A stretch of 64,000 nucleotides of DNA, taken from contig OZ001293.3 in assembly GCA_963921275.4 (NCBI GenBank), forward strand, positions 6,272,001 to 6,336,000, given 5' to 3'. The notes beneath the pieces were generated by a model. The model was not told where the DNA came from, made no database searches, and was given only the letters and a program-made list of their open reading frames with translations. Made by a program: the position numbers and the translations under genes. The stretch comes from an uncultured Hormoscilla sp. GTDB taxonomy: Bacteria; Cyanobacteriota; Cyanobacteriia; Cyanobacteriales; Desertifilaceae. The stretch's first letter is position 1. Each line of letters starts with the position of its first letter. Below are positions 1,000-57,293 of the stretch, piece after piece.

Positions 1000-1870
1000 G
1001 GATGGGGTCGAGCCGGGAATCGCTTCCCGACCCTCCCTTGAGGAACCGGACTTGCGATTTTCACCGCATCCGGCTACTGGGTACTAGGCCCTTTTCATAG
1101 GTAGACTTAATAGGAATTACTTCCGTTAGCCCTTGCCGCCTGTCTTTTCTTCCCTTTCCTGGTTTAGCGAGTGGTTGTTCTGATAACCGTTAGTATCACC
1201 ATTTTCAAGTCAGTTTTACCAGTTATCCATACCTTATCCTCCACTTGCGTTTCGGATTAGTTCCGTGGCTTTTTAGGATTACTCATTCCAGCAGCTTCCT
1301 AGTATCACCGACCCACGTCAGCGCTGGCTACCCAGCATCATCTACATTACTGTAGATGTTATCCCAGGAATTACCCCGGGCATTCGCTTCTTGGGCCATC
1401 CCTCCCCCCGTGGCTTGCGCTTAACATCTAACTTGTCCTGATGGACAGCACACGAGAGGTTACTTCGTTCCCTAACAACATTTCGCGATACCTTTAGGTC
1501 CACACTATACCCCGGGAGCTATTTGAGTACTATATTAGCCAGAGTCTAAAACTAATACTAGCTACCATTTCCTTTTTAGGCCAGCGCATATAGCCTTATT
1601 TCGCTGGTTCCTTATAACGAGGCTTGCACATGTTTGCCTGCTCTAACCTTGGATATCTTTCCTAGCGGCGTCACCGGCTTAGGCTGCCAGTTATCCTACA
1701 TTTGAGTCCTCGCTTAGCACCACGATGATGTCGCTTCGTAGCACCGAGGACCGGTGTCACCCCCGTACCTGGGGGGAGGGGAATTTAACCCCCATGCGGT
1801 CAGAGTTCCCGGCTAATGAAACCGGGCTAGCGTTCCGTGTTTGACCACGTTAGGCTAGAACGAATCGCAC
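1000..1870 (-). mobile_element. ORF-less group IIB-like intron, copy A1 (871 nt), inserted in a REP-like palindromic repeat
   Basis: Minus strand starts GTGCGATTCGTT at 1870. Domain V is GTAGCCGGATGCGGTGAAAATCGCAAGTCCGGTTC, followed by a domain VI hairpin ending GACCCCATCC. Same sequence as copies A2-A4. Confidence 0.93.
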
Positions 1871-1981
1871 GGACCCTTTAGGGTTCGGGCGGCGAGGCCG
1901 AGTAACAACGGGTTGGTTTTGACCACAGGGCGATCGCCATTATAATATTAGCACTGACTGTTATTTCTGTTAAAGATTCTA

Positions 1982-3068
1982 TCACTGCCACTCATCCCTA
2001 ATTTGTTGCTGATACTCCAAAGGATCTTGAGTTAATTTTATCACGCCGGCATATTTACTTATGCTGGATGGGGTCGAGCCGGGAATCGCTTCCCGACCCT
2101 CCCTTGAGGAACCGGACTTGCGATTTTCACCGCATCCGGCTACTGGGTACTAGGCCCTTTTCATAGGTAGACTTAATAGGAATTACTTCCGTTAGCCCTT
2201 GCCGCCTGTCTTTTCTTCCCTTTCCTGGTTTAGCGAGTGGTTGTTCTGATAACCGTTAGTATCACCATTTTCAAGTCAGTTTTACCAGTTATCCATACCT
2301 TATCCTCCACTTGCGTTTCGGATTAGTTCCGTGGCTTTTTAGGATTACTCATTCCAGCAGCTTCCTAGTATCACCGACCCACGTCAGCGCTGGCTACCCA
2401 GCATCATCTACATTACTGTAGATGTTATCCCAGGAATTACCCCGGGCATTCGCTTCTTGGGCCATCCCTCCCCCCGTGGCTTGCGCTTAACATCTAACTT
2501 GTCCTGATGGACAGCACACGAGAGGTTACTTCGTTCCCTAACAACATTTCGCGATACCTTTAGGTCCACACTATACCCCGGGAGCTATTTGAGTACTATA
2601 TTAGCCAGAGTCTAAAACTAATACTAGCTACCATTTCCTTTTTAGGCCAGCGCATATAGCCTTATTTCGCTGGTTCCTTATAACGAGGCTTGCACATGTT
2701 TGCCTGCTCTAACCTTGGATATCTTTCCTAGCGGCGTCACCGGCTTAGGCTGCCAGTTATCCTACATTTGAGTCCTCGCTTAGCACCACGATGATGTCGC
2801 TTCGTAGCACCGAGGACCGGTGTCACCCCCGTACCTGGGGGGAGGGGAATTTAACCCCCATGCGGTCAGAGTTCCCGGCTAATGAAACCGGGCTAGCGTT
2901 CCGTGTTTGACCACGTTAGGCTAGAACGAATCGCACAGACTCCTCTTGTTTAGGTAACTGACATTCTGCCAACAGCTTTTCAATTTTCTGCCAGTCCTGA
3001 TAATCAATCAACACAGCAACTGGACGCATAGCTTCATCGGTGACAATCTTTTTCTTAAAATGTAACAT
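1982..3068 (-). CDS. Small antitoxin-like hypothetical protein (71 aa) split by intron A2; exons 3068-2937 and 2065-1982
   Basis: Removing 2066-2936 gives the uninterrupted frame MLHFKKKIVTDEAMRPVAVLIDYQDWQKIEKLLAECQLPKQEES-SISKYAGVIKLTQDPLEYQQQIRDEWQ*. Confidence 0.8.
2066..2936 (-). mobile_element. ORF-less group II intron, copy A2 (871 nt)
   Basis: GTGCG at 2936; domain V/VI end at 2066; IBS1 GAGTCT is the perfect complement of EBS1 AGACTC. Confidence 0.93.
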
Positions 3069-3210
3069 CACAACCCTCTCGATACTTAAAGGTTAAATTA
3101 TATAATGGCTTCATACCTGGTAATTGTATAGTTAAAAATATGCGATACTTGTTATTAATTATTTTAACCAATTTTAAATTTTAACCAAATAACTTTTAAT
3201 TACTTAACAA

Positions 3211-3456
3211 TCATCGCCAGTCTTTTGCCTCTAATGTTCTCAGGTCTTGCCGAAATTACTCAACACCATAATGAATGGGAATTTTGCGGCTACCTAAAAT
3301 TCTGTGAAACTCTAGTTGATTCCTACCTGCAAATTTGCTTGCTGTACCCAAGGTAATCTTTTCCTGCTGAAAAAGCAGTATGGCAATTTCTAGCTTAAGA
3401 ACGGCTTCAGAGATATGTGCCGCTTGCAGAAACTCATCGGGAATAACCAAACTCAT
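3211..3456 (-). pseudogene. UPF0175-family antitoxin-like protein with an in-frame TAA at 3256-3258
   Basis: MSLVIPDEFL...ITLGTASKFAG...IPIHYGVE*FRQDLRTLEAKDWR*. Confidence 0.75.
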
Positions 3457-3612
3457 TTGTTCAATCTCCTTGTTTACTCAGATCTGACACCTGTTGCAAC
3501 TAGAGGCATATCCTCTCGAATATCATGACCAGGCGATCGCCTAGTAATTCAGTTGCCAAGTTCTCTAATGTCAGCTGGTCTTGCACTCCCCAAGGAATTC
3601 AAAATAACTTGC

Positions 3613-3885
3613 TCAACCACGATATTCGTCTCCTTCCCGGAGTTGGCGAATTAGTGGTACAGAATTGGGATGTATTCCAGTACGGACTCTGATTTGTTCC
3701 CGGAGGCGGGCGATCGCCGCATCTGTTGCTAAGAACTGCTGCCGGCGACGCTCCCGATCGTCTTTATCTTGCTGCTCTAGGTACGCTATGAATTCTCTTG
3801 CTAGGCGCGATCGCTCATCAGAAAGCTGCCCCAAACTGGATTGAACTTCCTCAAATAAACTATTGTGCTGCTGTTGCGGTTCCAT
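3613..3885 (-). CDS. Hypothetical protein, antitoxin-like
   Basis: 90 aa with GGAGG RBS; C-terminal SVPLIRQLRE resembles toxin-antitoxin antitoxins. Confidence 0.5.
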   Translation of the reverse strand: MEPQQQHNSLFEEVQSSLGQLSDERSRLAREFIAYLEQQDKDDRERRRQQFLATDAAIARLREQIRVRTGIHPNSVPLIRQLREGDEYRG

Positions 3886-4067
3886 CGTGACCTCCCATTC
3901 ACTAGGTTGATTGTAAAACGCTGTGGATCTGTTCAGTTGCTAGTTCTATTTTATCGTGGTGGGTGCCACTCTTACACCAATTGCAATTAGAGGCAGAGCC
4001 TCTAGAATATCATTACCAGGCCGGAGCCTGGTAACGAGGGAAAAATGCTTCGCCCCCGGGATGCATC

Positions 4068-5900
4068 TTAGAAGTTCTCGTGGTTGGAGATCGCCTCTTT
4101 CAACCTGTCGAGAACCTCGGCCACAGGGATAGCGCCCAAATCTTGAGAAGGAACGCCCGCAGCGCGAGTTCTAATACTCAGAGTATTATCTGCGAGTTCC
4201 TGGGCACCCACGATCGCCATCACGGGAATTTTCTGTTTCTCAGCATTGCGAATCATCTTCGGCAGGCGATCGCCAGTGGTATCCACCTCCACGCGCATGG
4301 CAAAGGAACGCATTTTATCTGCCACCTCTTTAGCGAAGTCCAACTGCGCGTCACTCACGGGCAAAAACCGCACTTGTACGGGTGCTAACCACAGGGGAAA
4401 ATCTCCCGCATACTCCTCAATTAAAATGCCAATTAACCGTTCCAGGGAGCCAAAAGGAGCCCGGTGAATCATGACTGGCCGTTGGCGAGAACCGTCCTCC
4501 GCCACGTACTGCAAATCAAAGCGATCGGGCAAATTATAATCCACCTGTACCGTACCCAACTGCCACTCACGTTCCAGGGCATCCCGGAAGATAAAATCCA
4601 ACTTGGGACCGTAAAACGCCGCTTCCCCAATGCCTTCAAAATGCTCCATCCCCAAGGTTTCCACCGCCCGACGAATGGCGTTTTGGGCTTTTTCCCAAGC
4701 CTCATCGGAACCGATATATTTATCCAAATTCGGATCGCGGAAACTCAGTCGGGCTCTAAAATTGCTCAAGCGCAAAGTTCCGAACACCGACAAGGTTAAA
4801 TCTACCACATTCAAGAATTCCCCATCCAGTTGTGCGGGGGTCACGAACAAGTGAGAATCATCCTGGGTAAAGCCTCGCACTCGCGTTAAGCCCCCCAATT
4901 CTCCTGATTGTTCGTAGCGGTAGACAGTGCCGAACTCCGCCAGACGCATGGGCAACTCCCCGTACGATCGCAACTCGTTCTGATAGATTTGGATGTGGAA
5001 AGGACAATTCATCGCTTTCAGGACGAAGCCCTCATCTTCGGACTCTCCCATCATCGGAAACAAATCTTCTTTATATTTCTGCCAATGTCCGGACGTCTTG
5101 AACAAATCGACTCTACCGATATGGGGCGTTACTACCTGCTGATAACCCCGTTTGATTTGTTCTTGCTTGAGAAAATCTTCTAGCAGACTCCTAACCACAG
5201 TTCCTTTGGGCGTCCACAAAGGCAAACCCGGTCCCACCCGATCGGAAAACAGAAATAAACCCAATTCCTTACCCAGCTTGCGGTGATCCCGCTTGAGGGC
5301 TTCTTCCTTGCGGCGCTTGTACTCCGTTAGCTGTTCCGGTGCCTCCCAGGCCGTGCCGTAAATCCGTTGCAGTTGCGCCTTCGTGGCATCCCCTCGCCAG
5401 TAAGCACCGGCCACGCTTTCCAAATCAATAGCTTTGGGGTCGATCTCACTCGTATTTTCCAGATGAGGACCGGCACATAAATCCCACCACTGGTCTCCCA
5501 GGTGGTAGATGGAGATCGGATCTTCTAATCCTGCTAAGATTTCTAGCTTATAAGGCTCATTAATTTCTGCGATCCGACGCTGGGCTTCTTCCCGGCTGAC
5601 CTCTTCCCGAATCACCGGCAATTTCCGGTTGACGATCTTGATCATCTCCTTCTTGATCGCCTTCAAGTCCTTTTCCGTGAAGGGTTCTGGATGATCGAAG
5701 TCATAGTAAAAACCATTCTCGATCCAGGGACCGATCGTCACCTGGGCCTTGGGAAACAGCTTTTGCACCGCCATGGCCATGACGTGAGAAGTCGTGTGAC
5801 GGATTTTTTTCAACGACTCCGACTCGCTAGTGCGCGGCAACTGAATTTTTGCCGGTTGCACTTCCTGTGATTCTGATTCAGGTATCTCTTGCTTAACCAT
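4068..5900 (-). CDS. thrS: Threonine--tRNA ligase
   Basis: IRHTTSHVMAMAV, DLCAGPH, MNCPFH, YRYEQSG, GEAAFYGPK, HRAPFGSLER motifs. Confidence 0.98.
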   Translation of the reverse strand: MVKQEIPESESQEVQPAKIQLPRTSESESLKKIRHTTSHVMAMAVQKLFPKAQVTIGPWIENGFYYDFDHPEPFTEKDLKAIKKEMIKIVNRKLPVIREEVSREEAQRRIAEINEPYKLEILAGLEDPISIYHLGDQWWDLCAGPHLENTSEIDPKAIDLESVAGAYWRGDATKAQLQRIYGTAWEAPEQLTEYKRRKEEALKRDHRKLGKELGLFLFSDRVGPGLPLWTPKGTVVRSLLEDFLKQEQIKRGYQQVVTPHIGRVDLFKTSGHWQKYKEDLFPMMGESEDEGFVLKAMNCPFHIQIYQNELRSYGELPMRLAEFGTVYRYEQSGELGGLTRVRGFTQDDSHLFVTPAQLDGEFLNVVDLTLSVFGTLRLSNFRARLSFRDPNLDKYIGSDEAWEKAQNAIRRAVETLGMEHFEGIGEAAFYGPKLDFIFRDALEREWQLGTVQVDYNLPDRFDLQYVAEDGSRQRPVMIHRAPFGSLERLIGILIEEYAGDFPLWLAPVQVRFLPVSDAQLDFAKEVADKMRSFAMRVEVDTTGDRLPKMIRNAEKQKIPVMAIVGAQELADNTLSIRTRAAGVPSQDLGAIPVAEVLDRLKEAISNHENF

Positions 5901-6395
5901 GCAGCTTTATTTCTTGATATCATCGGTTCGGGCGTCACCCTAATGTAGCATAGCGAAAGTAAATTACCAGCAGGCCCCATCTCGAACTGATGCTTTGGCT
6001 AGGGAAACTGATAACCGTAAACCGATCGCTAATATTAGGGTTCCACCGTTCATAGCCTCTATCTTACCGATGTTGTCCGGAAGCGGCCCGAGACCGAGAA
6101 TATGAAACAGAAAGTTTCATATTGTAAAGAAACGTAACTTATGTTAAGATTATTAAGTAAGTCAGTCCATTGCGATCGCCTTATGCTTAACTCAAATTTG
6201 GCACCAGCTGAGCTGTTATTGCCGGTGCGGCCCGATTTGCCGCCGGTGGTTTAGCTGGGAGCAAGGGGTTAGCATCAGCAGCAATCAGCACCAAAACACA
6301 AACGCTCCCAGTTGGCCCAAGACTGGGAAAATAGGATTCACTTTGTTTCAAGGCGTTAAAAAGCTATATAACCATCTGGTCTGGAGGAAAGTCGT

Positions 6396-6728
6396 ATGTT
6401 ACACCTGCTTTATATTCTTGCCTTTACTACCCTGGCTTTGATCGCACTACGGAATTTAATCGGCAACCTGTTAACCCTGGGTATAGACTCTACCCGCAAT
6501 TATCCGCCCCAAAGGCCAAACATCGGTAAAAACACTTATCAGTCCCTCGCTAGGTCTGGCCGTCAAGCTGTGCCTCATCCAGAATTTTTGGATGAAGCGG
6601 GTAACGTGATCGACGAACCCCTGCTGGTGATGCGATCGATGACAGTAGAAGATGCCCGCTCCAAATTGGACGCCCTGTACAACTCAACTCCGGAATCTTC
6701 TGGTATGGAAGGTCGCGAAGAAAACTAG
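6396..6728 (+). CDS. DUF2973-like cyanobacterial protein
   Basis: MLHLLYILAFT...PHPEFLD...EPLLVMRS...DARSKLDALY. Confidence 0.75.
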   Translation: MLHLLYILAFTTLALIALRNLIGNLLTLGIDSTRNYPPQRPNIGKNTYQSLARSGRQAVPHPEFLDEAGNVIDEPLLVMRSMTVEDARSKLDALYNSTPESSGMEGREEN

Positions 6729-12700: not shown

Positions 12701-12738
12701 CTCTCCTAACACTGCTACTAATCGTCCTTGGCACAGAC

Positions 12739-15839: not shown

Positions 15840-16060
15840 GTCCCTCTCGTCCTCTCGTTCCTCTCGTTGGCAGGTTCCTCTCGTTCCTCTCGTTGGCAGG
15901 TTCCTCTCATTCCTCTCGTTGGCAGGTTCCTCTCGTTCCTCTCATTCCCAGGTTCTACCTGGGAATGATTATCAGGAGGCTCTGCCTCTTCCCGATGCCC
16001 AGAGATTACCTCGGAGGCTCTGCCTCGTGCTGGACGTTCCCTGCCAGAGTCAGGGAACGA
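15840..16060. repeat. Short tandem TTCCTCTCG(TTGGCAGG) repeats plus a REP-like palindrome (GAGGCTCTGCCTC family)
   Basis: Directly visible; related palindromes at about 3990-4037 and 27440-27488. Confidence 0.7.
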
Positions 16061-27742: not shown

Positions 27743-29759
<2,017 letters not shown>

Positions 29760-29914: not shown

Positions 29915-30785
29915 GTGCGATTCGTTCTAGCCTAACGTGGTCAAACACGGAACGCTAGCCCGGTTTCATTAGCCGGGAACTCTGACCGCATGGGGGTTAA
30001 ATTCCCCTCCCCCCAGGTACGGGGGTGACACCGGTCCTCGGTGCTACGAAGCGACATCATCGTGGTGCTAAGCGAGGACTCAAATGTAGGATAACTGGCA
30101 GCCTAAGCCGGTGACGCCGCTAGGAAAGATATCCAAGGTTAGAGCAGGCAAACATGTGCAAGCCTCGTTATAAGGAACCAGCGAAATAAGGCTATATGCG
30201 CTGGCCTAAAAAGGAAATGGTAGCTAGTATTAGTTTTAGACTCTGGCTAATATAGTACTCAAATAGCTCCCGGGGTATAGTGTGGACCTAAAGGTATCGC
30301 GAAATGTTGTTAGGGAACGAAGTAACCTCTCGTGTGCTGTCCATCAGGACAAGTTAGATGTTAAGCGCAAGCCACGGGGGGAGGGATGGCCCAAGAAGCG
30401 AATGCCCGGGGTAATTCCTGGGATAACATCTACAGTAATGTAGATGATGCTGGGTAGCCAGCGCTGACGTGGGTCGGTGATACTAGGAAGCTGCTGGAAT
30501 GAGTAATCCTAAAAAGCCACGGAACTAATCCGAAACGCAAGTGGAGGATAAGGTATGGATAACTGGTAAAACTGACTTGAAAATGGTGATACTAACGGTT
30601 ATCAGAACAACCACTCGCTAAACCAGGAAAGGGAAGAAAAGACAGGCGGCAAGGGCTAACGGAAGTAATTCCTATTAAGTCTACCTATGAAAAGGGCCTA
30701 GTACCCAGTAGCCGGATGCGGTGAAAATCGCAAGTCCGGTTCCTCAAGGGAGGGTCGGGAAGCGATTCCCGGCTCGACCCCATCC
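29915..30785 (+). mobile_element. ORF-less group II intron, copy A3 (871 nt), inserted in a REP-like hairpin
   Basis: Empty site TAGGTTGGGTTT|CGTGCCTCAACCCAACCTA matches the uninterrupted repeat at about 37541-37563 on the opposite strand. Confidence 0.93.
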
Positions 30786-39507: not shown

Positions 39508-42393
39508 CTACCACCACCGCAGCTGCAAATAACCCCTCGCGGGTTGCTTCAGTTCCTCCTCAGTTAGCCAGTCTACAGGCTTGTAGGTACCAAAGACACG
39601 GTCCCACCAATCAACAGCCAGACCAAAATTATGTTCCCACATGCCGTACTTATGATGCACGTAATGAACGGGCATCGCCATCCAGAAGCACTTGGTCGGG
39701 TGTTAAACTAAGCCAGTACGTCACCGTACCGACTCGTCTTCAAAACCGGACGTGAGATTTTCACCTCATCCGGCTCCTCAATAATGCCATCCTTTACATG
39801 GATACGACAACTACCATCACGGGCAGTTTTTATATCGTGGCAGTGTTTATGCAGTAGTTGGATGTTTTCCCACTGGTCCTTACCACCTAGTGATAGGAGT
39901 TTGATGTGGTCCACTTCCCATTTGTCTTCGTCCCTGAACGTTAATCCGCATTCTTGGCATTTACCCTTTTGTCTTTTGAGCAGTTTGGCCACTCGATTGT
40001 TCAACTCGGGGTTTTTGCCTAGTCTTGTACTCCAATATGTCAAGTCTCCATCGTATGGGCTGGCTGCCCCTTTTACCTTTATGTGCCTTACTACTTCCGT
40101 TCGACTGTGTTGTAGTAGCACTGCTTCTCCTGTCTCAGTTTTGCACCGGAATTGCCATTGTACATCTTGGCCTATCGACCAATACTTTTTGGCTATCCAG
40201 TGTTTTGACTTGTTTGGGTGCCGTCTTTTTGCCCATGTCCATAGAAGCTCCCACAGATATTTGTCCATATCGGAGAAAGTCTCCTTACTTACTACCGTCT
40301 TAAAGTAGTTTGTCCACCCTCGTATGACCGGGTTAAGTTTGCTTATTAAGGCTCCCTGTGGTGCTGCTTTATGACTGGTCACAATTTCTGACAATCTACC
40401 TTTGTGTTCATCTATGGACTCTTTGCTTGGTTTTATTAGGGTTTTGAATCCTAGGGGTTCTCCATGTGGATTTTTGCCTGTGTGGTATTTCCCTACCTCA
40501 TACTGCCTCACATGGAATCCCAGAAAATTAAACCCTGGGTTTTCACCGTTAAGTGTATGAGATGTTTTCGTTTTTTCAGGCTTCAGTTCTAACCCTATTC
40601 CTCCTAACCAATCCGCTACAACCCTCTGCGCTCTTTCTATTGTTTCCCTGTCCTTGTGTATTACTACAAAGTCATCGGCGTATCTAACTACTTTCAGCTC
40701 CTTCCTGTTGTTTCCTGCTATGGACTTTACTTTTTCCTCTAATCCGTGTAAGGCCACATTTGCCAACAGTGGCGATATGACCCCACCTTGAGGAGTTCCG
40801 TAGGGAGTTTCGAGCGTTTTTCCTGCATCTATCACGCGGGCTTTTAGCCATGCGCGTATTTGTCTACGAAAGATAGGCAAGGTATTTAGTTTTGTTAGTA
40901 GCGCTTCGTGGTTGATTTTATCGAAGCATTTAGCAATATCGGCATCTAGTACGTACTTGTCCTTACACCTTATGCTGTTAAATATTGCTCCGATTGCATC
41001 ATGGCACCCTCTACCTGGTCTAAAGCCGTAGGAATTTGGCTCAAAATATGCCTCCCATTCGGGTTCTAAGGCAGATTTCACCAATCCCTGAAGTGCGCGG
41101 TCGTACATAATTGGGATTCCTAGTGGACGTTTTTCGCTCTTGCCCGGTTTAGGTATCCACACTCGTCGCGCGGGCCTTGCCTTGCTTGAGATTTTTAACA
41201 GTCCTACCAATTCGACGCGCTGCTTTGGGGACAACGCCTTTACGCCATCCACACCGGCAGTCTTCTTTCTTTGGTTATCTTGTGTTACCCGTCGTACCGC
41301 TAAACACTTGGCTGACCAGGACTTAACCAGTAATCTTTGGAGCTTGCGGACTGTTCGCCTATCACCACGTTGTGCCGCTCTGTAAATTCGTTTTTGCAGC
41401 TTGTAGACTTTCCGCTCTAGCTTGCGCCAGGGGATGGTCTGCCATTCATACATCGATTTTGACATCGTGCTCATAACGTTTGCACTGCTACTTACAACTT
41501 CACAATTGACATTATCGTGAGGGCGTCAGCGTATCCTGACCATTACAGTCAGGCGTTTGCTTCTCCACTCAATCCTTCCCGGCTATGACCTGCTTTCTGG
41601 AGAGCAGATGTTGCGTCTTTGGTGACTACTCCACCGATCGACCACTGGTGGAGAGTACATAACCGAGTTACTTCGTTCCTACAGATGATTGTTTGTAGTT
41701 TTAGGTGGGTTTTATACGCCGGGTTTTTGGTCAGTGCTTGATGGTCGGACGATAAACCGCCATCGACCTTATCCTTCCCCTTTTGGGGCCGGTGTTTCAG
41801 CCTTATTTCACCGGTTCTACATGACGACGTTTATAAACCTTCTCTTACGATCACCATGACTACTTGCTTGGCGGTAACCGGTGTAGGCTACCAGTCATTG
41901 CGCCGTTCATTCCCGCTTTATGGATTGATGTCATCGTTACCATAGGGAGAGTGCTGTCACTCCTGCACCTGGAGGGGTGGGCTTTCACCACCATCATCTG
42001 TAAGTTGTCAGGGCTAATGTCACCCTGCTAGTGGTCCCCATTAGTGACTTGTGTCACGTTTGTTTACACTAAACGAATCGCACTATTATGTTGTAGCTGA
42101 TGGGCATAGGCGGCAAAGGCGGCAAACACCAGTCCCCCCAGGAACCAACCAATTCCTGCTGCCCAGGAGATGAAGAACATCATACACATTACCACAAAGC
42201 TGCCGACGATGTAATCCCGAAATTCCCAAACCACGCCCTGTCCCTCGTTGCGCCGGTGATGGTCCCGATGGCGTTTGCCAATTTTCGGCGAGACATGCAT
42301 CAGGCGATGCAGCCAATATTCTACTAAACTTCCCAGGATAAAGGATCCTAGGAAACAGATAACTCCTACTCCTATGCTGCTTAAGGCGATCAT
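39508..42393 (-). CDS. Sterol desaturase/fatty acid hydroxylase family protein (167 aa) split by the RT intron; exons 42393-42084 and 39701-39508
   Basis: His boxes EYWLHRLMH and HRDHH; spliced HQLQHN-NPTKCFWMAMPVHYVHHKY...WDRVFGTY. Confidence 0.9.
39702..42083 (-). mobile_element. Full-length group IIB (chloroplast-like class) intron, 2382 nt
   Basis: 5' GTGCGATTCGTT; domain V GAGCCGGATGAGGTGAAAATCTCACGTCCGGTT; 3' end TTAGTTTAAC; removal restores the host frame. Confidence 0.95.
39708..41474 (-). CDS. ltrA: Group II intron reverse transcriptase/maturase with HNH endonuclease
   Basis: TAGVDG, RPLGIP, YGFRPGR, GTPQGGVISPLL, RYADD, X domain GWTNYF, C-terminal CQECG..DH..N..H..CH. Confidence 0.96.
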   Translation of the reverse strand: MSTMSKSMYEWQTIPWRKLERKVYKLQKRIYRAAQRGDRRTVRKLQRLLVKSWSAKCLAVRRVTQDNQRKKTAGVDGVKALSPKQRVELVGLLKISSKARPARRVWIPKPGKSEKRPLGIPIMYDRALQGLVKSALEPEWEAYFEPNSYGFRPGRGCHDAIGAIFNSIRCKDKYVLDADIAKCFDKINHEALLTKLNTLPIFRRQIRAWLKARVIDAGKTLETPYGTPQGGVISPLLANVALHGLEEKVKSIAGNNRKELKVVRYADDFVVIHKDRETIERAQRVVADWLGGIGLELKPEKTKTSHTLNGENPGFNFLGFHVRQYEVGKYHTGKNPHGEPLGFKTLIKPSKESIDEHKGRLSEIVTSHKAAPQGALISKLNPVIRGWTNYFKTVVSKETFSDMDKYLWELLWTWAKRRHPNKSKHWIAKKYWSIGQDVQWQFRCKTETGEAVLLQHSRTEVVRHIKVKGAASPYDGDLTYWSTRLGKNPELNNRVAKLLKRQKGKCQECGLTFRDEDKWEVDHIKLLSLGGKDQWENIQLLHKHCHDIKTARDGSCRIHVKDGIIEEPDEVKISRPVLKTSRYGDVLA

Positions 42394-43423: not shown

Positions 43424-46400
43424 TCAATTAACCACAGTGAAATCATCGACATTAATCAGGGTCGAATCAATCCCCTGCAGGGTGGCCAGGGTTTTCCCTT
43501 CAAAGTTAATCCGGGTATCGAGGCCCATCCTGACGATCGCCAAATCGTCGAAACTCAAACCTCCTGCTAGCCCAATCGAGTCCGTGCCATCTTCAAAGTC
43601 TATAATGGTATAGCCCATGCCCGACTCCAGAACAAAAAGATCGGCCTGCTGAGATCGTCCGTAGAGGCTATCGTTTCCATCTCCGCCGATGAGACCGTCG
43701 TTTCCGTAGACGCGATCGCTTCCATTTCCGCCGGTGAGGGGGTCGTCCTCCTGGAGGCGATCGTCCTGACCGACTATTAGTGAGGCGACCTCCAGAACAT
43801 CGTTGACGTTAATCGTGAAGACCTCCGAGTAACTGGCCCCAGTAACGTCGGTAGTCTGGACGCGGATGCCGTAACTCGATCGGGTCGGGGAACTGTTAAT
43901 TAGCAGTTGGTCCCCTACTATGGTGAAAGCAGCGTTATCATTGTCACCAAAGCCCGAGGTTAACCGGTAGGTAAAGGTATTTCCCCCGTCGGGATCGCTA
44001 GTAGAGAAAGTCCCCACGATTGTACCCTCACGGGAGTTGGAGTTGATGTTGTTGTCGCTAAGGGCTATCTCGGTAGGAGACTCGGCAACATTGTTCACAT
44101 TAATAGTCAAGACCTCCGAGTAACTGGCCCCTGTCTGGTCGGTAGTCTGGACTAATATCCTGTAAATCGACTGAGTCTCAAAGTCCGGGGAACTGTTAAT
44201 TCGCAGTTGGTCCCCTACTATGGTGAAAGCAGCGTTATCATCGCCACCAAAGCCGGAGACTAACCGATAGGTAAAGGTATCTCCCTCGTCGGGATCGCTA
44301 GTTCCGAAAGTCCCCACGACTGCACCCGATGGAGAGTTTTCATTGATGATGCTGCTGCTGAGAACTATATCGGTAGGAGAGGAGTTCTCTGCAACGTCGG
44401 TGACATTAATAGTCAAGGCCTCCGAGTAACTGGCCCCAGTCTGGTCGGTAGTCTGGACGCGGATGCTGTAACTCGACTGAGTCTCAAAGTCAGGGGAACT
44501 GTTAATTCGCAGTTGGTTCCCTACTATGGTGAAGGCGGCGTTATCATCGTCACCAACGCCTGAGACTAACTCGTAGGTAAAGGTATCTCCAGAGTTGGGG
44601 TCAGTAGTGGATAAAATCCCCACAACAGTATTGGCTGGGGAGTTTTCATTGATATTGATGCTGCCGCTGAGTTCGATGTCGGTAGGAGATTCGGCAACAT
44701 CGTTGACGTTAATAGTCAAGACCTCCTCGTAACTGGCCCCAGTCTGGTCGGTAGTCCGGACGCCGATGTTGTAACTCGACTGGGTCTCAAAGTCCAAAGA
44801 ACTGTTAGTTAGCAGTTCGTCCCCTACTATGATGAAGGCGTTGCTGCCGGAGAGTAACTGGTAGGTAAAGCTATCTCCAATGTCCGCGTCGGTAGTGGAG
44901 AAAGTCCCCACGACTGCACCCAATGGGGAGTTTTCATCAATGCTGCTGTTGCTGAGAACTATGTCAGTAGGAGAGGAGTTCTCAGCAACATCGTTGACGT
45001 TAATAGTCAAGGCCTCCGAGTAACTGGCCCCAGTAGCGTCGGTAGTCTGGACGCCGATCCTGTAACTCGACTGAGTCTCAAAGTCCAAAGAACTGTTAAT
45101 TCGCAGTTGGTCCCCTACTATGGTGAAGGCGGCGTTATCATCGTCACCAACGCCTGAGACTAACTGGTAGGTAAAGGTATCTCCAGAGTTGGGGTCAGTA
45201 GTGGAGAAAGTCCCCACGACTGCACCCAATGGGGAGTTTTCATCAATACTGCTGCTGCTGAGTTCGATGTCGGTAGGAGATTCGGCAACATCATTAACCT
45301 CAATAATCAAGACCCTCGAGAAACTGTCCCCAGCAGAGTCGGTAGTCTGGACGAGGATGCTGTAACTCGACTGGGTCTCAAAGTCCGGGGAACTGTTAAT
45401 CAGCAGTCGGTTTCCTTCTATGGTGAAGGCGTCGTTATCATCGGGACCAACGTCGGAGATTAACTGGTAGCTAAAGGTATCTCCCTCGTCGGGGTCGGTA
45501 GTCGAGAAAGTCCCCACGACTGTATCCGATGGGGAGTTTTCATTGATGCTGCTGTTGCTGAGAACTATGTCAGTAGGAGAGGAGTTCTCTGCAACATCGG
45601 TGACGTTAATAGTCAAGACCTCCGAGTAACTGGCCCCAGCAGCGTCGGTAGTCCGGACGAATATCTCGTAACTCGACTGAGTCTCAAAGTCCAAAGAACT
45701 GTTAGTTCGCAGTTCGTCCCCTACTATGGTGAAGGCGTTGCTGCCGAAGAGTAACTGGTAGGTAAAGCTATCTCCAATGTCGGCGTCGGTAGTGGAGAAA
45801 GTCCCCACGACTGCACCCAATGGGGAGTTTTCATTGATGCTGCTGTTGCTGAGAACTAGGTCGGTGGGAGTAGAGTTCCCTACAACATTAATGCTAAAGG
45901 TATCTGTCCCTTCACCTAGATCTTCGTCTATGGCGGTTACCGTTACGGTAAAGTTGCCTGCGGTAGTAGGGATACCGCTGATAACTCCCCGACTGTTGAT
46001 GGTTAAGCCCTCTGGTAAACCGATAGCTGTGTAGTTGTTGATGTTACCATTGTTGATGTTACCATTGATGTCGCCGAAGTTGTCGCTAATGTCTTCGTTG
46101 AAGTTATTCCCTGACAAGAGATCAAAGTCAAAGTCGGGAATCTCGGTTCTTACATAAGGGGGGTTTTCCAATAGCTTGTTAGCCCGCAAATTTAGAACCT
46201 CTTGGGGGATGGTGCCAGTTAGTCGGTTGTCGAACAGCCAGAGCTCTTCCAAATTGGAAAAATTTCCTAACTGAGGAGGGATGGAACCAGTCAGTCGGTT
46301 GTTGAACAGCCAGAGCTCTTCCAAATTGGAAAGATTCCCTAACTGAGGAGGGATGGTGCCAGTCAGGTCGTTGTTGAACAGCCAGAGAGCTACCAAATTG

Positions 46401-47833
46401 GAAAGATTTCCTAACTGAGGAGGGATGGTGCCAGTTAGTCGGTTGTTGTCCAGGTGGAGATCCTCCAAATTGGAAAGATTTCCTAACTGAGGAGGGATGG
46501 TGCCAGTTAGTCGGTTGTTGTCCAGGTCGAGCTCTTCCAAATTGGAAAGATTCCCTAACTGAGGAGGGATGGTGCCAGTCAGTCGGTTGTTGTCCAGGTC
46601 GAGATCGTCCAAATTGGAAAGATTCCCTAACTCACTCGGGATGCTGCCAGTCAGTCGGTTGTTGTCCAGGTCGAGCTCTTCCAAATTGGAAAGATTTCCT
46701 AACTGAGGAGGGATGGTGCCAGTCAGGTCGTTGTTGTCCAGGTCGAGCTCTTCCAAATTGGAAAGATTCCCTAACTGAGGAGGGATGGTGCCAGTCAGGC
46801 CGTTTTCCTCCAGCTCAATTACCGTCACCCTGCCGTTCTCTACCGTTACCCCAAACCAATCGTTAAGATCATTAGGGGGAGTTGGGCTGCTGAAATCCCA
46901 GCCTTCATTGTTCTGCCAAGAATCCCCATTTGTGGCGTCGTATAGGGCCCTCAGTGCCTGATAGTCGCTAAGAAGGGGGTTAACAAGGGGGTTGTTGCCG
47001 GACAGGTCGAGCTGTTCCAAATTCAGATTATCTAACTCCTGAGAGATGCTGCTACTCACACTCAGGTTGTTGTTGGACAGGTCGAGAGCTTCCAAATTGG
47101 AAAGATCCCCTAATTCCGTCGGGATGGTGCCACTCAGTTGGTTGTTGGACAGGTTGAGCTCTTCCAAATTGGAAAGATTCCCTAACTGAGGAGGGATGGT
47201 GCCAGTCAGGTCGTTCGACTGCAGGTTGAGCTCTACCAAATTGGAAAGATTCCCTAACTGAGGAGGGATGGTGCCAGTCAGGCCGTTTTCCTCCAGATCG
47301 AGTACCGTCACCCTGACTCTATCTAGATCCACCCCAAACCAATTATCAACAACAGACTCATCGGGGGGAGTGTCACTGTTGAAATTCCAGTCCTCCCAGC
47401 CTGTATTGTCATCCCAAGATGTCCCACCCGTGCCTTGGTATAGAGACCTTAAGGCCTCATAATCCTGCTGATTGAGGGGGGCCAGCTTAGCCATCAACTC
47501 CTCTCTTGCATCTCCGGCGGCCACGTTACAGCCGTAGAGTAGGAGTTTTTTGATTTTCCACCCCCGCAGGGTAGAGGCGTAATCCCCTAGGGTATCTAAA
47601 CTCAGTTGGGAGTTCCCCAGATACAGACAGCCAGGGCTGCCGTGGGAGAGTAGGTGAAGAACCTCTGTTTCCCGATGCTGTAGGAGTTGTTCGCCGATCT
47701 GTTCGATGCCATCGGACTGAAGGTCTAAGAGGAAGGGTTTGGTTCCAGGCTGGAGGCCGTCTATAAGCTGCTGGTAGTTTTCTAAAGAGGGATCCACTAC
47801 TACCATGGTGAAGGCATTGGTATTATTCTTCAT
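43424..47833 (-). CDS. Large secreted/surface protein: DUF4347, plant-type LRRs, Ig-like domain, about 7 cadherin-like repeats, RTX-type tail
   Basis: HLLSHGSPG..LLYGCNVA; LxxLxLxNNxLTGTIPPQLG repeats; FSTTD..DFET repeats; GGDGND.L.G tail. Confidence 0.9.
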   Translation of the reverse strand: MKNNTNAFTMVVVDPSLENYQQLIDGLQPGTKPFLLDLQSDGIEQIGEQLLQHRETEVLHLLSHGSPGCLYLGNSQLSLDTLGDYASTLRGWKIKKLLLYGCNVAAGDAREELMAKLAPLNQQDYEALRSLYQGTGGTSWDDNTGWEDWNFNSDTPPDESVVDNWFGVDLDRVRVTVLDLEENGLTGTIPPQLGNLSNLVELNLQSNDLTGTIPPQLGNLSNLEELNLSNNQLSGTIPTELGDLSNLEALDLSNNNLSVSSSISQELDNLNLEQLDLSGNNPLVNPLLSDYQALRALYDATNGDSWQNNEGWDFSSPTPPNDLNDWFGVTVENGRVTVIELEENGLTGTIPPQLGNLSNLEELDLDNNDLTGTIPPQLGNLSNLEELDLDNNRLTGSIPSELGNLSNLDDLDLDNNRLTGTIPPQLGNLSNLEELDLDNNRLTGTIPPQLGNLSNLEDLHLDNNRLTGTIPPQLGNLSNLVALWLFNNDLTGTIPPQLGNLSNLEELWLFNNRLTGSIPPQLGNFSNLEELWLFDNRLTGTIPQEVLNLRANKLLENPPYVRTEIPDFDFDLLSGNNFNEDISDNFGDINGNINNGNINNYTAIGLPEGLTINSRGVISGIPTTAGNFTVTVTAIDEDLGEGTDTFSINVVGNSTPTDLVLSNSSINENSPLGAVVGTFSTTDADIGDSFTYQLLFGSNAFTIVGDELRTNSSLDFETQSSYEIFVRTTDAAGASYSEVLTINVTDVAENSSPTDIVLSNSSINENSPSDTVVGTFSTTDPDEGDTFSYQLISDVGPDDNDAFTIEGNRLLINSSPDFETQSSYSILVQTTDSAGDSFSRVLIIEVNDVAESPTDIELSSSSIDENSPLGAVVGTFSTTDPNSGDTFTYQLVSGVGDDDNAAFTIVGDQLRINSSLDFETQSSYRIGVQTTDATGASYSEALTINVNDVAENSSPTDIVLSNSSIDENSPLGAVVGTFSTTDADIGDSFTYQLLSGSNAFIIVGDELLTNSSLDFETQSSYNIGVRTTDQTGASYEEVLTINVNDVAESPTDIELSGSININENSPANTVVGILSTTDPNSGDTFTYELVSGVGDDDNAAFTIVGNQLRINSSPDFETQSSYSIRVQTTDQTGASYSEALTINVTDVAENSSPTDIVLSSSIINENSPSGAVVGTFGTSDPDEGDTFTYRLVSGFGGDDNAAFTIVGDQLRINSSPDFETQSIYRILVQTTDQTGASYSEVLTINVNNVAESPTEIALSDNNINSNSREGTIVGTFSTSDPDGGNTFTYRLTSGFGDNDNAAFTIVGDQLLINSSPTRSSYGIRVQTTDVTGASYSEVFTINVNDVLEVASLIVGQDDRLQEDDPLTGGNGSDRVYGNDGLIGGDGNDSLYGRSQQADLFVLESGMGYTIIDFEDGTDSIGLAGGLSFDDLAIVRMGLDTRINFEGKTLATLQGIDSTLINVDDFTVVN

Positions 47834-48139: not shown

Positions 48140-48317
48140 CTTCGGCGTTGGGTAGTGAAGGGTCGGGGTTGGGTAGTGAAGGGTCGGGGTTGGGTAGTGA
48201 AGGGTCGGGGTTGGGTAGTGAAGGGTCGGGGTTGGGTAGTGAAGGGTCGGGGTTGGGTAGTGAAGGGTCGGGGTTGGGTAGTGAAGGGTCGGCGTTGGGT
48301 AGTCTAGGGTCGGCGTT
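48140..48317. repeat. About 8 tandem 21-bp repeats GTTGGGTAGTGAAGGGTCGG(G/C)
   Basis: Direct tandem units with no spacers. Confidence 0.9.
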
Positions 48318-51634: not shown

Positions 51635-51704
51635 TGTCAACTTAGGTCTCAAACTCGGTTTATCGTCTAAACCGAGTTTGGAAGATAGGACAGGAGAAAA
51701 AATC

Positions 51705-52346: not shown

Positions 52347-52520
52347 CTACCAGTTTACTCTACAGTGTCCCGTCGCGTACTCTTGTCCTGACCGCGCTAG
52401 CGTGGCGCCAGCCATAGGACACGGCACACGACGGGACACTGCTGAAAAATTGTTCATTTCCATTCAAATTTATGCTATCCTGAAAATCACCAGCAAACAT
52501 TAGATAAATTTAAAGGTACT

Positions 52521-52832
52521 ATGAACCAAGAAGAACAGAACCCACTGAGGAGTAAACTAGAGAAAGAATTGCAAGAGTCAGAATGGTTACAGAAGTTCAA
52601 GCAACTGAGTGCAGGACTCAGGCAAATTAAAACAGAAATTCCACTTACGCAACTCGGCAACCTAGAATGGATGACGGATACCGAAAGCCTGATAATTCAC
52701 TGTCCTAACCCAGAAGTGAGGGCCGGGTTGTCTCAGCAGATACCCCAGATCGCCCAAATTAATATTGGGGCCAACCTCTTTATCCTCAAACACCCGAACT
52801 ACCCAGACATTATCATCCATCCTAATTGTTGA
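52521..52832 (+). CDS. Hypothetical protein
   Basis: 103-aa ORF. Confidence 0.5.
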   Translation: MNQEEQNPLRSKLEKELQESEWLQKFKQLSAGLRQIKTEIPLTQLGNLEWMTDTESLIIHCPNPEVRAGLSQQIPQIAQINIGANLFILKHPNYPDIIIHPNC

Positions 52833-52997
52833 AACTTGGGAATTGAAAATTGGGAATTGTTCAAGCAATTAATCCAGTACTTCGGAGCGCGCAATAATTA
52901 TCAATTAGTAGGGAAGATTAGCAATAAGCAATTAGTCAGAGCTGATGTTACAATATATGTAAATTTGTAGAGAAGTTGTGTAGATAGGTTATTTATT

Positions 52998-54245
52998 ATG
53001 GCATCGATCGCCCGCAAGAACCTATTGGAAGACATTCCCCGCTTCCTCGTAGCCCAGGCAGGGATTATGTTTGCCGTCAGCCTGGTGACGATTCAGACCG
53101 GCATACTCAAGGGGTTTACTCGCTCGACGGTGCAGTTGATCGAAAATTCCCCAGCTGACATCTGGGTAGCATCCCAGGAAATGTTGCATTTAGAATTGAC
53201 AAAGCCCCTGCTGTTGGAGTACGCTTTACTGGCTAAACAGGTGGAAGGGGTCGATCGGTCGGAACCCTTGATGAGGGGAATAGCTCAGTGGAATGTTCCC
53301 GGGGCGGAACTGACTCCTGTGAAGGTATTCGGTTTCGACCCAGGGGGGCAATTATTTTTACCTGGCAAGGTCAACCCCAGCAGCTTGCGGGCCCTGAAGG
53401 AACCTTACACCGCGATCGTCGATGCCAGCAATTTAGATTCCCTGCACGTCCGAGGTGTGGGCGATCGGGCAGAAATTGGCTCTTTGCCAGTGCGGTTGGT
53501 AGGCTTAACTAAAGAAACTCAGTCGATCATATCGAGTCCCTTCGTGTTTACCTCCTTGAAAAGTGCCAACGCCTATCTCAATGCTGGTGTCACTTCTAAG
53601 CTGAACTGCAAGCTGCTACCCGAGGGCGATATCAAATGCGTCACTATTTACGAACAGGAAGAAACTACGGAAACATCAGCAGTTTCTCCTCCCAAACCCT
53701 TAAACTTAACAGACCCGATCGTCTACGTGTTAATTCGGGCCAAACCAGGGGAGGATCTACAGGCACTCAAACGGCGGTTAGAAGCGGCTTTGCCAGATAG
53801 CCAGGCCTATACTCGTGCGGAAATAGCTAACCAGACCCGCGACTACTGGCAGCAGCGCAGCGGCATTGGATTTATTCTCGGTTTGGGTGCGGCGGTGGGT
53901 GTTATGGTGGGTATGGTAGTTGTCGGTCAGATCCTCTACTCTTCTGTATCCGATCATCTCAAAGAGTTTGGAACACTCAAAGCAATGGGGGCGTCTGACT
54001 GGGTAATTTACAGCGTCATTATCGAGCAAGCCCTGTGGATGGCAGTTATAGGATATGTTCCCAGTATGATCCTTTGCTTGGCCTTGGCATCTTGGGCCTT
54101 GGCAAGTCAGGGAATTATGATTTTGATCACGCCCCTATCTGCCGCCGGAGTTTTGGGAATTACCCTGCTGATGTGTGTCGGTTCAGCTTTCTTCGCCATT
54201 CAAAAAGTGACTCGCGTCGATCCGGCGATCGTCTTCAAAGCCTAA
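52998..54245 (+). CDS. ABC exporter permease (DevC/FtsX-like)
   Basis: SIARKNL, DHLKEFGTLKAMGA, TM segments, RVDPAIVF. Confidence 0.9.
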   Translation: MASIARKNLLEDIPRFLVAQAGIMFAVSLVTIQTGILKGFTRSTVQLIENSPADIWVASQEMLHLELTKPLLLEYALLAKQVEGVDRSEPLMRGIAQWNVPGAELTPVKVFGFDPGGQLFLPGKVNPSSLRALKEPYTAIVDASNLDSLHVRGVGDRAEIGSLPVRLVGLTKETQSIISSPFVFTSLKSANAYLNAGVTSKLNCKLLPEGDIKCVTIYEQEETTETSAVSPPKPLNLTDPIVYVLIRAKPGEDLQALKRRLEAALPDSQAYTRAEIANQTRDYWQQRSGIGFILGLGAAVGVMVGMVVVGQILYSSVSDHLKEFGTLKAMGASDWVIYSVIIEQALWMAVIGYVPSMILCLALASWALASQGIMILITPLSAAGVLGITLLMCVGSAFFAIQKVTRVDPAIVFKA

Positions 54246-54285
54246 AACTCGTTGCAATCGCAATTAGCCATTCGCAATTATTTAC

Positions 54286-55059
54286 TTGATCAGACTTATG
54301 AGTAATTCTCAAATTGCTGGGTTTTCGCAAATCCACATGGGGGGTGCCTCTACTACTATCGATCGAGAGCGCAGTAACACATCGGCTATCTCTGCTGTCG
54401 GGATAGAGATGGTTTTCGGTTCGGGTGCTGCGCGCTTTCAGGCCTTGAAGGGCATCGATCTGCAGATCCAATCGGGCAGTATCCAACTGTTGATGGGGCC
54501 ATCGGGTTCGGGTAAAACTACTTTACTCTCAATTGTAGCTGGGCTGCTGACGCCCACGGCGGGCAGAATCTATCTATTAGGAGAAGAGATTACCCAATTG
54601 TCCCGCACTAAGTTGTCCCGCTTCCGCCTGAAAAACATTGGCTTTATTTTTCAGGGGTTTAACCTGTTTCCGGCCCTGACTGCGGGTGAAAATATTGAAC
54701 TTGCTCTCCATCTTAAAGGCATTCGCGGCAGAACCGCCAGATATCAAGCACGAGAGTTGTTGGCAGCGGTGGGGTTAGGAGATAAAGTTAAGTCCCGCCC
54801 TCGTGACTTGTCTGGGGGACAGAAACAACGGGTCGCGATCGCCCGGGCCTTAGCTGGCAGGCCCCAGTTAATCATGGCCGATGAACCTACTGCTGCTTTA
54901 GACTCCCAGAGTGGACAAAATGTGATTCAATTATTGCGTCAGCTGGCCAAGGAACAAGGCTGCACTGTCTTGATGGTAACCCATGACCCCAGGATTATTG
55001 ATGTGGCCGATCGGGTTGCTTACCTGGAAGATGGTATCCTCAAACCCGAAGGTTCGTAA
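54286..55059 (+). CDS. ABC exporter ATP-binding protein (DevA/LolD-like)
   Basis: GPSGSGKTT, LSGGQKQR, MADEPT, VTHD. Confidence 0.92.
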   Translation: MIRLMSNSQIAGFSQIHMGGASTTIDRERSNTSAISAVGIEMVFGSGAARFQALKGIDLQIQSGSIQLLMGPSGSGKTTLLSIVAGLLTPTAGRIYLLGEEITQLSRTKLSRFRLKNIGFIFQGFNLFPALTAGENIELALHLKGIRGRTARYQARELLAAVGLGDKVKSRPRDLSGGQKQRVAIARALAGRPQLIMADEPTAALDSQSGQNVIQLLRQLAKEQGCTVLMVTHDPRIIDVADRVAYLEDGILKPEGS

Positions 55060-55066
55060 ATTTATT

Positions 55067-55110
55067 ATTGTAAGATAAATTCATGAATTTATCTTACAAT
55101 ATAATCTTTT
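55067..55110. repeat. 34-bp perfect palindrome plus tail; left flank of the R-M cassette
   Basis: ATTGTAAGATAAATTCATGAATTTATCTTACAAT-ATAATCTTTT; related copy at 58371-58410. Confidence 0.8.
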
Positions 55111-57293
55111 ACTGTCTGCCAAAAGATTCTGGCAAAACAGCCAAAATGCTTTTTGCTGTAGCATTACCTAGTTCTTTGGGCTCCAGTTTGTGAAGCCCGC
55201 CCCCATATACTCGACCCTCACCTGCCAATATTTCTGGGGATATCTCCTGGAGAGCTTGCCACACAACTTTGACAAGCTGCCGATTTATGTTGAGGATTTT
55301 CTCCAGGTTTGGTTTTGGGTAAAGCATCAGATACACATTGGCTGCTGTCGCCCGACTGTGATTCAATATAAATCGGAATGTGAGACCAGTTTTTTGGCCT
55401 TTACGCCCCATATAAGTACAAAGGAACCTAGAAGCAGGACGGTTCTCTTGTAAGTACCAAGGACATCTATGTCTGCACAAATACCGCTGACTATATCCGG
55501 CTTTTACACCTAAAATAAGGTAATTCCAAAGTGCTGGATACTTAGATTTTACCTCCGCTTCTGGCAAATGGCATGCTAGCAAAAATAGTTGCCGATCGAC
55601 CAGGGGATTCCCAGCCAGATCTGCTGCTATCTCCTCTACTGAGAGGTATCGGGGACTGGGTAAAATTGGTTTCAAGAATTCCTCTGGCAGTTGATAGCGA
55701 TCGATCTGTTCTGGGGTGAGGATAAAGAACTGATTTGCCCCGGTTGCTGGATGGGGTCGAGCCGGGAATCGCTTCCCGACCCTCCCTTGAGGAACCGGAC
55801 TTGCGATTTTCACCGCATCCGGCTACTGGGTACTAGGCCCTTTTCATAGGTAGACTTAATAGGAATTACTTCCGTTAGCCCTTGCCGCCTGTCTTTTCTT
55901 CCCTTTCCTGGTTTAGCGAGTGGTTGTTCTGATAACCGTTAGTATCACCATTTTCAAGTCAGTTTTACCAGTTATCCATACCTTATCCTCCACTTGCGTT
56001 TCGGATTAGTTCCGTGGCTTTTTAGGATTACTCATTCCAGCAGCTTCCTAGTATCACCGACCCACGTCAGCGCTGGCTACCCAGCATCATCTACATTACT
56101 GTAGATGTTATCCCAGGAATTACCCCGGGCATTCGCTTCTTGGGCCATCCCTCCCCCCGTGGCTTGCGCTTAACATCTAACTTGTCCTGATGGACAGCAC
56201 ACGAGAGGTTACTTCGTTCCCTAACAACATTTCGCGATACCTTTAGGTCCACACTATACCCCGGGAGCTATTTGAGTACTATATTAGCCAGAGTCTAAAA
56301 CTAATACTAGCTACCATTTCCTTTTTAGGCCAGCGCATATAGCCTTATTTCGCTGGTTCCTTATAACGAGGCTTGCACATGTTTGCCTGCTCTAACCTTG
56401 GATATCTTTCCTAGCGGCGTCACCGGCTTAGGCTGCCAGTTATCCTACATTTGAGTCCTCGCTTAGCACCACGATGATGTCGCTTCGTAGCACCGAGGAC
56501 CGGTGTCACCCCCGTACCTGGGGGGAGGGGAATTTAACCCCCATGCGGTCAGAGTTCCCGGCTAATGAAACCGGGCTAGCGTTCCGTGTTTGACCACGTT
56601 AGGCTAGAACGAATCGCACAAACCCCGCTTGATTGTGAATAGGTCGGATAACTTGAGGGACATGTCATCGCGACTAAATAAATATTCCTCGATCTGTTTT
56701 CCGTAATTTACATCCATAAACTCACTATGAATCAGCCATCCAGCAATAGCATTTTCAGCCATCCAGGCATCTGCTTTGCAGAGAAAATAGCAGTACATCC
56801 CCGCTAATTGACTAAGTTTTATTCCCACTGTTTGATAGGTAATGTTTTGCAGTCGCTGCTTCTCAGTATTGGTCAAATGGTGATGTCTGACATAGGGAGG
56901 ATTGGCAATGATTAGGTTAAATTTTGTGGCGTCAGAACTTGGCGGCGTGGCACGGGTAAAATCGTCAATTTTTAGCTTTAATGGCCTATCTTGCCAAAAC
57001 TCAGACGCTTGCAACCCATAGTCTGGAGAAATTTCATAGCCAACCGCCTCAGCAATCTGTGAAGAAGGAAATGTTTTTAGTAAAGCAGAGTAGAATGAGC
57101 CAGTACCAAAAGCAGGATCCAGAAAGCGAATGTCTCCTGGCAACAGTGCTTTGGCGTATTCTAGCATATCTGTTGCTAGGGCCGTCGGTGTCGCAAATTG
57201 ACCGAGTTTGTTTCTTGAGTGGCGTGTTTTCCTGGAGTCAAGTTCTGCTTGAAGCTGGAGGCGCCTCAATTCAATATTGTTTATTTCTACCAT
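55109..57293 (-). CDS. N6-adenine DNA methyltransferase (Eco57I/gamma-type, 437 aa) split by intron A4; exons 57293-56620 and 55748-55109
   Basis: GQFATP, LDPAFGTG, NPPY; the spliced junction gives IKRG-LATGANQFF. Confidence 0.85.
55749..56619 (-). mobile_element. ORF-less group II intron, copy A4 (871 nt)
   Basis: Same sequence as A1-A3; IBS1 GGGTTT. Confidence 0.93.

Follow-up and report, generated by a model that had tools for sequence, protein, structure and literature searches.

How does an intron that encodes no protein come to lie four times, letter for letter the same, within 64 kb of bacterial DNA? The question is raised by positions 6272001-6336000 of chromosome C1 of an uncultured Hormoscilla sp. 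(genome 7.03 Mb), a stretch of 64,000 nucleotides (nt) called the window below, which holds four copies of an 871-nt group II intron without an open reading frame (ORF). Copies 1, 2 and 4 occupy 1000..1870, 2066..2936 and 55749..56619 on the minus strand, and copy 3 occupies 29915..30785 on the plus strand. An earlier sequence-only reading had taken them for a recently amplified, non-autonomous group II retroelement. The explanation favored here, which is very probably correct, is that this is a protein-less IIB2-type intron with about 149 copies at guide-matched sites, spread by retrohoming in trans through the reverse transcriptase (RT) of distantly related introns. Copy number, exact ends, the lack of an ORF and of target duplication, a covarying six-domain fold, and targeting by the exon-binding sequences EBS1, EBS2 and EBS3 are established; from the sequence we infer splicing, a lariat at A863, the action of a helper RT and present-day activity.

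Copy number and age of the 871-nt family

Alignment of the four copies confirmed that they are letter-identical (100%). Like all copies they begin GTGCG (their start is GTGCGATTC), and each matches the domain V/VI model RF00029 at 44.4 bits (cut-off 40). The longest stop-free frame among all six is 58 codons, domain IV carries no RT ORF, and a tblastn search for RT gave no match in free-standing copies of the family. The expectation that annotation would miss the element was half right: Rfam finds its last 77 nt with RF00029, stopping 2 nt before the true end, while the D1-D4 model reaches 22 bits against a cut-off of 36.

A genome-wide BLAST search found many more copies than the four first noticed. 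The chromosome has 139 copies that are full-length and ≥95% identical, five more that are split by a second self-copy after position 768, and fragments; clustering by domain V/VI gives 149 matches. The family amounts to 129,631 bp, or 1.9% of C1, with no member on the six small contigs. Copies lie on both strands (64 plus, 75 minus), and the GC skew is too weak for any replication-strand bias to be read. The window is only mildly enriched (1.39 copies expected per 64 kb; P(≥4)=0.052).

The 139 copies, at 121-122 distinct sites, fall into 63 haplotypes: the window form accounts for 61 copies, and a two-base variant between domains V and VI is shared by 21. Private substitutions amount to 5.9e-4 per site, compared to a flank divergence of 1-7% from the congener G004. 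Together with the guide-matched, precise insertions and the empty alleles in congeners described below, these figures support recent amplification of a non-autonomous group II intron, in a burst that appears very recent.

The identity of so many copies could also reflect a collapsed or over-duplicated repeat in the assembly. Such an artefact is hardly credible given the 63 haplotypes and the unique flanks with empty orthologs. In addition, read-derived contigs show a depth of about 6000 on the intron versus 46-60 on the flanks in run X2, and 2400-5300 versus 5-26 in run X4. These ratios of about 100 or more argue against an artefact, with the proviso that both runs may come from the same study as the assembly. 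Runs X5 and X8 contain the intron with flanks of the present genome at trace depth and are not independent occurrences. A joint that skips the 871 nt in X2, X4 and X8 was considered as a polymorphism and set aside, because an intron-free paralog at C1:4.885 Mb can yield it.

Relatives are found within the genus. G004 carries one that is 92% identical to the 871-nt element, at five places (16 candidates scored). Searched with a pattern for domain V of the wider lineage, the present genome gives 275 matches and four congeners give 1, 26, 25 and 65, counts to be read with the knowledge that the pattern misses the spacing of the main window haplotype and that three of the four congener assemblies are fragmented. 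Across the phylum, a single match turned up in each of seven genomes out of 400 others; five of these matches have RT sequence upstream, and none of the seven resembles the 871-nt element over the RNA body. A domain V profile gives 464 matches at ≥18 bits on the chromosome, some of them degenerate, and 0 in a reversed-chromosome control. Many multi-copy introns in this larger set (domain V clusters 2, 6, 15, 16, 18 and others) have an altered domain V, with a mispaired 3' strand or a changed triad region, and still recur at several sites.

Ends, fold and target choice

The ends of the element were fixed by comparison with empty sites. Orthologous empty alleles join the flanks exactly for copies 1, 2 and 4 in G004 and for copies 2 and 4 in the congener G003, and among 122 distinct sites examined, 42 have a paralog free of the intron. 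The terminal CC is missing from every one of these 42 (eight of the sites also gave a few weaker matches with an added C, and one a match with CC). The empty alleles thus define an exact 871-nt insertion without target duplication, as the sequence-only reading had proposed. Two host genes on the minus strand give the same length. The RelB-like antitoxin gene that holds copy 2 in sense orientation (1982..3068; PF18506) has 71 codons open only on removal of all 871 nt (otherwise 47 and 46). The Eco57I-type DNA methyltransferase gene that holds copy 4, also in sense (55109..57293; PF07669 and PF22837), has 437 codons open only without all 871 nt (otherwise 293 and 250). Because CC follows position 869 in 138 of the 139 copies, is missing from the empty alleles, and must be removed to open the host frames, the 3' end is ACCCCAUCC (AUCC); an 869-nt element ending AU, with CC as target, is ruled out by the empty paralogs, the empty orthologs and the host frames.

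Group II introns usually end in AY (PMC8393795 and PMC4424553). This consensus, which has known exceptions, is not followed by the 871-nt family, and the γ-γ' contact still pairs as G-C. Sister ORF-less families end GACU, GACC or UAAU, and six RT-bearing relatives outside the genus seem, from column conservation only, to end ACC or AAC, so the CY end is probably a trait of the lineage rather than unique to this family. A literature search found no description of a CY intron end; Simon et al. 2008, on ORF-less introns, may describe such ends.

Clustering of 280 elements, each 750-1100 nt long, at 95% gave 36 ORF-less families, from which a consensus fold was built; elements that were longer or unpaired did not enter. 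The fold has six domains, with 7036 of 7478 cells paired (94%) and 89 double-change pairs, compared to 4-12 when partners are slid, and it bears out the domain I-VI fold anticipated earlier. The fold can be followed along copy 1 (all minus strand). Domain I (element positions 7-407) lies at 1464..1864 and contains EBS2a, U255, at 1616; EBS2, UAAGG (257-261), at 1610..1614; EBS1, AGACUC (324-329), at 1542..1547; and EBS3, U364, at 1507. Domain II (412-467) lies at 1404..1459. The GGA of J2/3, at 1399..1401, includes γ (G470), the predicted partner of the terminal C871, and γ covaries with the last base in all 36 families (19 A-U, 15 G-C and 2 G-U). Domain III (474-561) lies at 1310..1397, and domain IV (562-792), at 1079..1309, is folded and includes the self-insertion site after position 768. 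Domain V (794-829), at 1042..1077, is found by both RF00029 and the consensus fold and has the AGC triad and bulge of group II introns. Domain VI (834-866), with the bulged A863, lies together with the non-AY end CAUCC at 1000..1037.

The three EBS pairings of subgroup IIB are present, and the start GTGCGATTC fits the IIB2 (CL2) consensus GUGCGAUUC (PMC4649490; subgroup criteria also from PMC8643678). By this 5' consensus the element is IIB2-like. The extra stem-loops at the domain I base appear as hairpins at 13-63 in a single-sequence fold and only partly in the consensus fold.

The sequence-only reading had placed the copies at unrelated sites. This proved wrong, for the sites have a common target motif that complements the guides: GAGTCT at -6..-1 pairs with EBS1, CCTTA at -13..-9 with EBS2, and A or G at +1 with EBS3. 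At least 9 of 12 EBS pairs with the intron-binding sequences (IBS) form at 90% of 112 sites, compared to 0.7% of 20000 random positions, and the mean is 9.9 of 12. The 92% relative in G004 has changes in all three guides, and its targets have changed to match. (Three copies of that relative, on G004 contigs C27, C13 and C2, are themselves broken near position 320-330, in the EBS1 loop, by a reversed ORF-less intron.) Across the 36 ORF-less families, EBS3 pairs with +1 at 61 of 67 sites outside the two big ones; copy 3 of the 871-nt element has an unpaired C there. With more than 100 natural target sites, the family reads out the targeting rules of the intron. A conserved AUAAGGCU loop at 273-280 was rejected as EBS2, because it stays the same in families whose targets differ.

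A fourth guide is EBS2a. Position 255 and target position -14 form a Watson-Crick pair in 33 of 36 families, in all four combinations (shuffle mean 14.2). EBS2a-IBS2a has been described as an RT-stabilised pair that is needed for mobility and DNA invasion and not for splicing (PMC8643678, which also gives the definition used here). Covariation of this mobility-specific pair, along with that of EBS3-IBS3 and γ-γ', points to RT-driven retrohoming, and among the sequence evidence for movement of the lineage in this way, the EBS2a-IBS2a covariation is the best. Further upstream, A-15 is enriched at 82 of 112 sites and C-18 at 52 of 112. These two bases may make contact with protein, as in EcI5 and TeI3c/4c (PMC2882425); TeI3c with the TeI4c RT selects A-15 and A-14 (PMC2882425), in agreement with A-15 and A-14 at the present targets.

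These results bear on the idea that the copies were chiefly carried along by other mobile DNA, or arose by duplication or transposition at the DNA level as do miniature inverted-repeat transposable elements (MITEs). The 139 copies at 121-122 sites do include common sites inside repeated elements, and about 10 copies share one homologous site in RT genes (see below). Nevertheless, the idea is very improbable: the ends (GTGCG.../...ATCC) show neither the terminal inverted repeats nor the target-site duplication of a MITE or insertion sequence, most sites are unique and EBS-matched, and common sites carry differing variants, both main haplotypes included.

Reverse transcriptases and mobility in trans

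If the element encodes no RT, which protein moves it? The genome has 123 RT-like loci, of which 15 retain a long open RT-maturase-HNH frame (≥550 codons, including YADD and HNH); these 15 are 66-100% identical to one another. One of them lies in the window, carried by a group II intron of a different RNA type at 39702..42083 (minus); its ORF (39708-41474, 588 amino acids) comprises RVT_N, RVT_1 with YADD, GIIM and HNH, and is a candidate helper. Its closest named relatives are in Hormoscilla metagenome-assembled genomes (76% and 61-65% identity); the window's genes are cyanobacterial, and the organism is probably a sponge symbiont. All intact RTs with an assignable domain V belong to other RNA types than the 871-nt element, and none of the 309 paired elements of the ORF-less RNA type in this genome has its own RT; four long RT matches inside such elements turned out to be mis-paired nests. 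Domains I-III of the 871-nt element are about 55-60% alike to those of RT-bearing introns, here and in other cyanobacteria. Because the intact RTs sit in introns of only this likeness, the helper is likely non-cognate. The EBS2a covariation and the 15 intact RTs are the grounds on which we infer mobilization in trans by the RT of another intron.

The model can be stated as follows. The 871-nt intron likely splices out of host transcripts with its lariat at A863, and its RNA is likely bound by the RT from one distantly related RT-bearing intron of the same genome. The RNA is then predicted to reverse-splice into DNA and to be copied there (retrohoming in trans). The burst may have been permitted by loose guide pairing, a relaxed EBS2a, and weak purifying selection in a probable symbiont. 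The model also addresses two unusual arrangements, namely head-to-tail arrays (one of two copies and one of three, with members that differ in variants) and self-nested copies, which insert after position 768. Since the U of EBS3 can pair with the first G of an inserted copy, that G could serve as +1 and tandems would follow; since domain IV holds a near-match to the target motif at the self-insertion site, copies would nest in their own kind. The EBS3(U)-G wobble route to tandems has been demonstrated for EcKTE56.groEL (PMC12584367), a IIB1 intron that is autonomous and was studied at a single site in a laboratory assay, whereas the arrays here are natural.

Several observations weigh against this model. 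The RNAs of the RT-bearing introns are far less alike to the 871-nt element than TeI3 is to TeI4, and the target signatures of the RT-bearing families (too few sites each) singled out no helper; the distal signature C-18/A-15/A-14 suffers from the same scarcity of sites per RT family, and its -14 position is explained by EBS2a. EBS2a itself contributes to target choice (-14 A) at about half of the sites, pairing at only 52 of 111; the small families pair there at 55 of 66 sites (Fisher p=1.3e-6), the 835-nt family described below does so at 34 of 57, and for EcI5 strict pairing is reported (PMC8643678). A shift of register does not rescue it (55 of 113 paired). The element ends in CC rather than AY, its branch A is at -9, and the 36 families are related, so that the covariation counts are not independent. 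Finally, by crude gene calls (n=4568 genes; the host of copy 4 was missed), 37 copies run in sense, 32 in antisense, 60 are intergenic and 10 nested, an orientation no different from that of unoccupied motif matches (p=0.47); a sense bias (37 versus 22, p=0.036) emerges only after removal of 10 matches in RT genes. There has thus been little purging in the burst, and there is no firm sign that splicing lets sense copies be tolerated.

Could a cognate parent intron, RT-bearing and of the same RNA type, have driven the burst and since been lost, or be missing from the assembly, so that the family may now be immobile? Known ORF-less introns are nearly always found beside closely related RT introns (PMC4424553), the assembly is 96.7% complete by markers, and 57 of 73 singleton changes are C>T or G>A, as in post-insertion decay. 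A lost parent is still improbable, given the lack of RT in any of the 309 paired elements, the 61 of 139 copies that remain identical, and the 36 diverged ORF-less families with relatives in all four congeners, which indicate a long ORF-less history.

A broader proposal goes beyond trans retrohoming: that this is a long-lived lineage without an RT parent, comparable to short interspersed nuclear elements (SINEs), which hijacks the RTs of introns about 55-60% alike, burst to about 149 copies through a loosened EBS2a-IBS2a check on entry into double-stranded DNA, and disabled its helpers by backward insertion. We offer it tentatively, as a possibility that is less likely than not. Near codon 471 of RT genes, ahead of the HNH domain, about 10 copies are inserted antisense at one homologous site, and their differing variants suggest repeated homing. 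In one RT-intron family, 8 of 9 copies hold the 871-nt element antisense at the same site (starts on C1 near 1056960, 1152144, 3087153, 3655117, 4451120, 5183959, 5989846 and 6406537), and only 2408135-2409907 keeps the full frame. If the SINE-like proposal is true, the genome would capture, in a bacterium, a mass invasion by introns that share a splicing and mobility protein, and the intron would be a compact, four-guide retargetable scaffold.

The closest precedent is in Thermosynechococcus elongatus, where ORF-less TeI3 introns are mobilized in trans by TeI4 RTs (Mohr et al. 2010, PMC2882425). There too, group IIB introns without an ORF increased in number in the genome of a cyanobacterium, at EBS-matched sites, entered RT-bearing introns, and show the A-15/A-14 preference. 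The differences are considerable, as far as the available text of that paper goes: T. elongatus has 17 ORF-less copies, compared to about 149 of one family here; TeI3 introns are IIB1 and close derivatives of TeI4 with ORF remnants, whereas the present element is IIB2-like with no RT remnant, is no deletion derivative of a close RT intron, and lacks a close RT-bearing partner in its genome; and the present element enters RT genes antisense and ends CC. Arthrospira platensis NIES-39 is likewise a filamentous cyanobacterium with a very large group II load, much of it ORF-less: at least 150 introns, 79 of them ORF-less (PMC2853384), or 101 by a later pipeline, the highest of 1,790 representative bacterial genomes (PMC8919778). 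In the present genome one family alone reaches 149, beside the 464 domain V profile matches, although the methods differ and the counts are not like-for-like. A phytoplasma has 52 RT loci (PMC13577128). One ORF-less family here equals the highest whole-genome intron counts in the surveys as available, and reviews hold that such introns are uncommon in bacteria and linked to a closely related intron that bears an RT (PMC4424553). Trichodesmium erythraeum has ten introns without an ORF, spliced in vivo by a trans-acting maturase (PMC4649490, PMC12584367). Like the 871-nt family these are cyanobacterial, lie in genes and have GUGCGAUUC as 5' consensus, and the dependence on the protein of another intron, established there, would hold here as well; unlike it, they show no mass expansion of one family in the available text of those two papers.

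With this system it becomes possible to test how a small number of RTs can support hundreds of introns that encode no protein, a stage regarded as earlier than spliceosomal introns, and whether bursts are driven by relaxed pairing at EBS2a. A literature search that covered neither subscription papers nor supplements found no description of this intron swarm, and the main text of PMC6520454 does not contain the word 'intron'.

Host genes and neighboring features

The 871-nt copies split many host genes, and annotation will show these as fragments. In the methyltransferase gene that holds copy 4, an internal stretch of about 230 nt has moreover been deleted in frame, relative to its orthologs. 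It belongs to a decaying restriction-modification pair at 55109-58260 (minus), in which the adjacent gene is split in two frames; the paralog at C1:4.885 Mb is an intron-free version of this locus. Copy 1 lies in a short repeated intergenic element with 54 empty paralogs, and copy 3 is intergenic within a repeat with 7. Around copy 1, the flanks and 967-990 (minus) consist of a short palindromic repeat with dozens of genomic copies, several of which contain intron copies. This repeat scores as Rfam CRISPR-DR28 (36.6 bits), yet it is a dispersed repeat.

The window also holds a member of a sister ORF-less family, 835 nt long, at 27819..28653 (plus), within a DUF697 GTPase-like gene. It ends ACCCCGACU, and the 393-codon frame of the host opens only with this GACU end. 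The sister family has about 80 copies genome-wide, and its EBS1 target is AGTGCA. The notion that it is older and has been purged of antisense copies was abandoned: its private substitution rate is similar (4.7e-4 versus 5.9e-4 in the 871-nt family), and its target motif is itself strand-biased.

Elsewhere in the window, 43424-47833 (minus) encodes a 1469-amino-acid repeat protein, LRR- and cadherin-like by eye, with tandem units of 72 nt and 306 nt. Arrays of short tandem repeats, with units of 21 and 26 nt, lie at 48142-48317 and 15843-15955. Outside the window, contig C3 (31 kb) has 17.6% GC compared to 47% elsewhere in the assembly, and is possibly foreign DNA.

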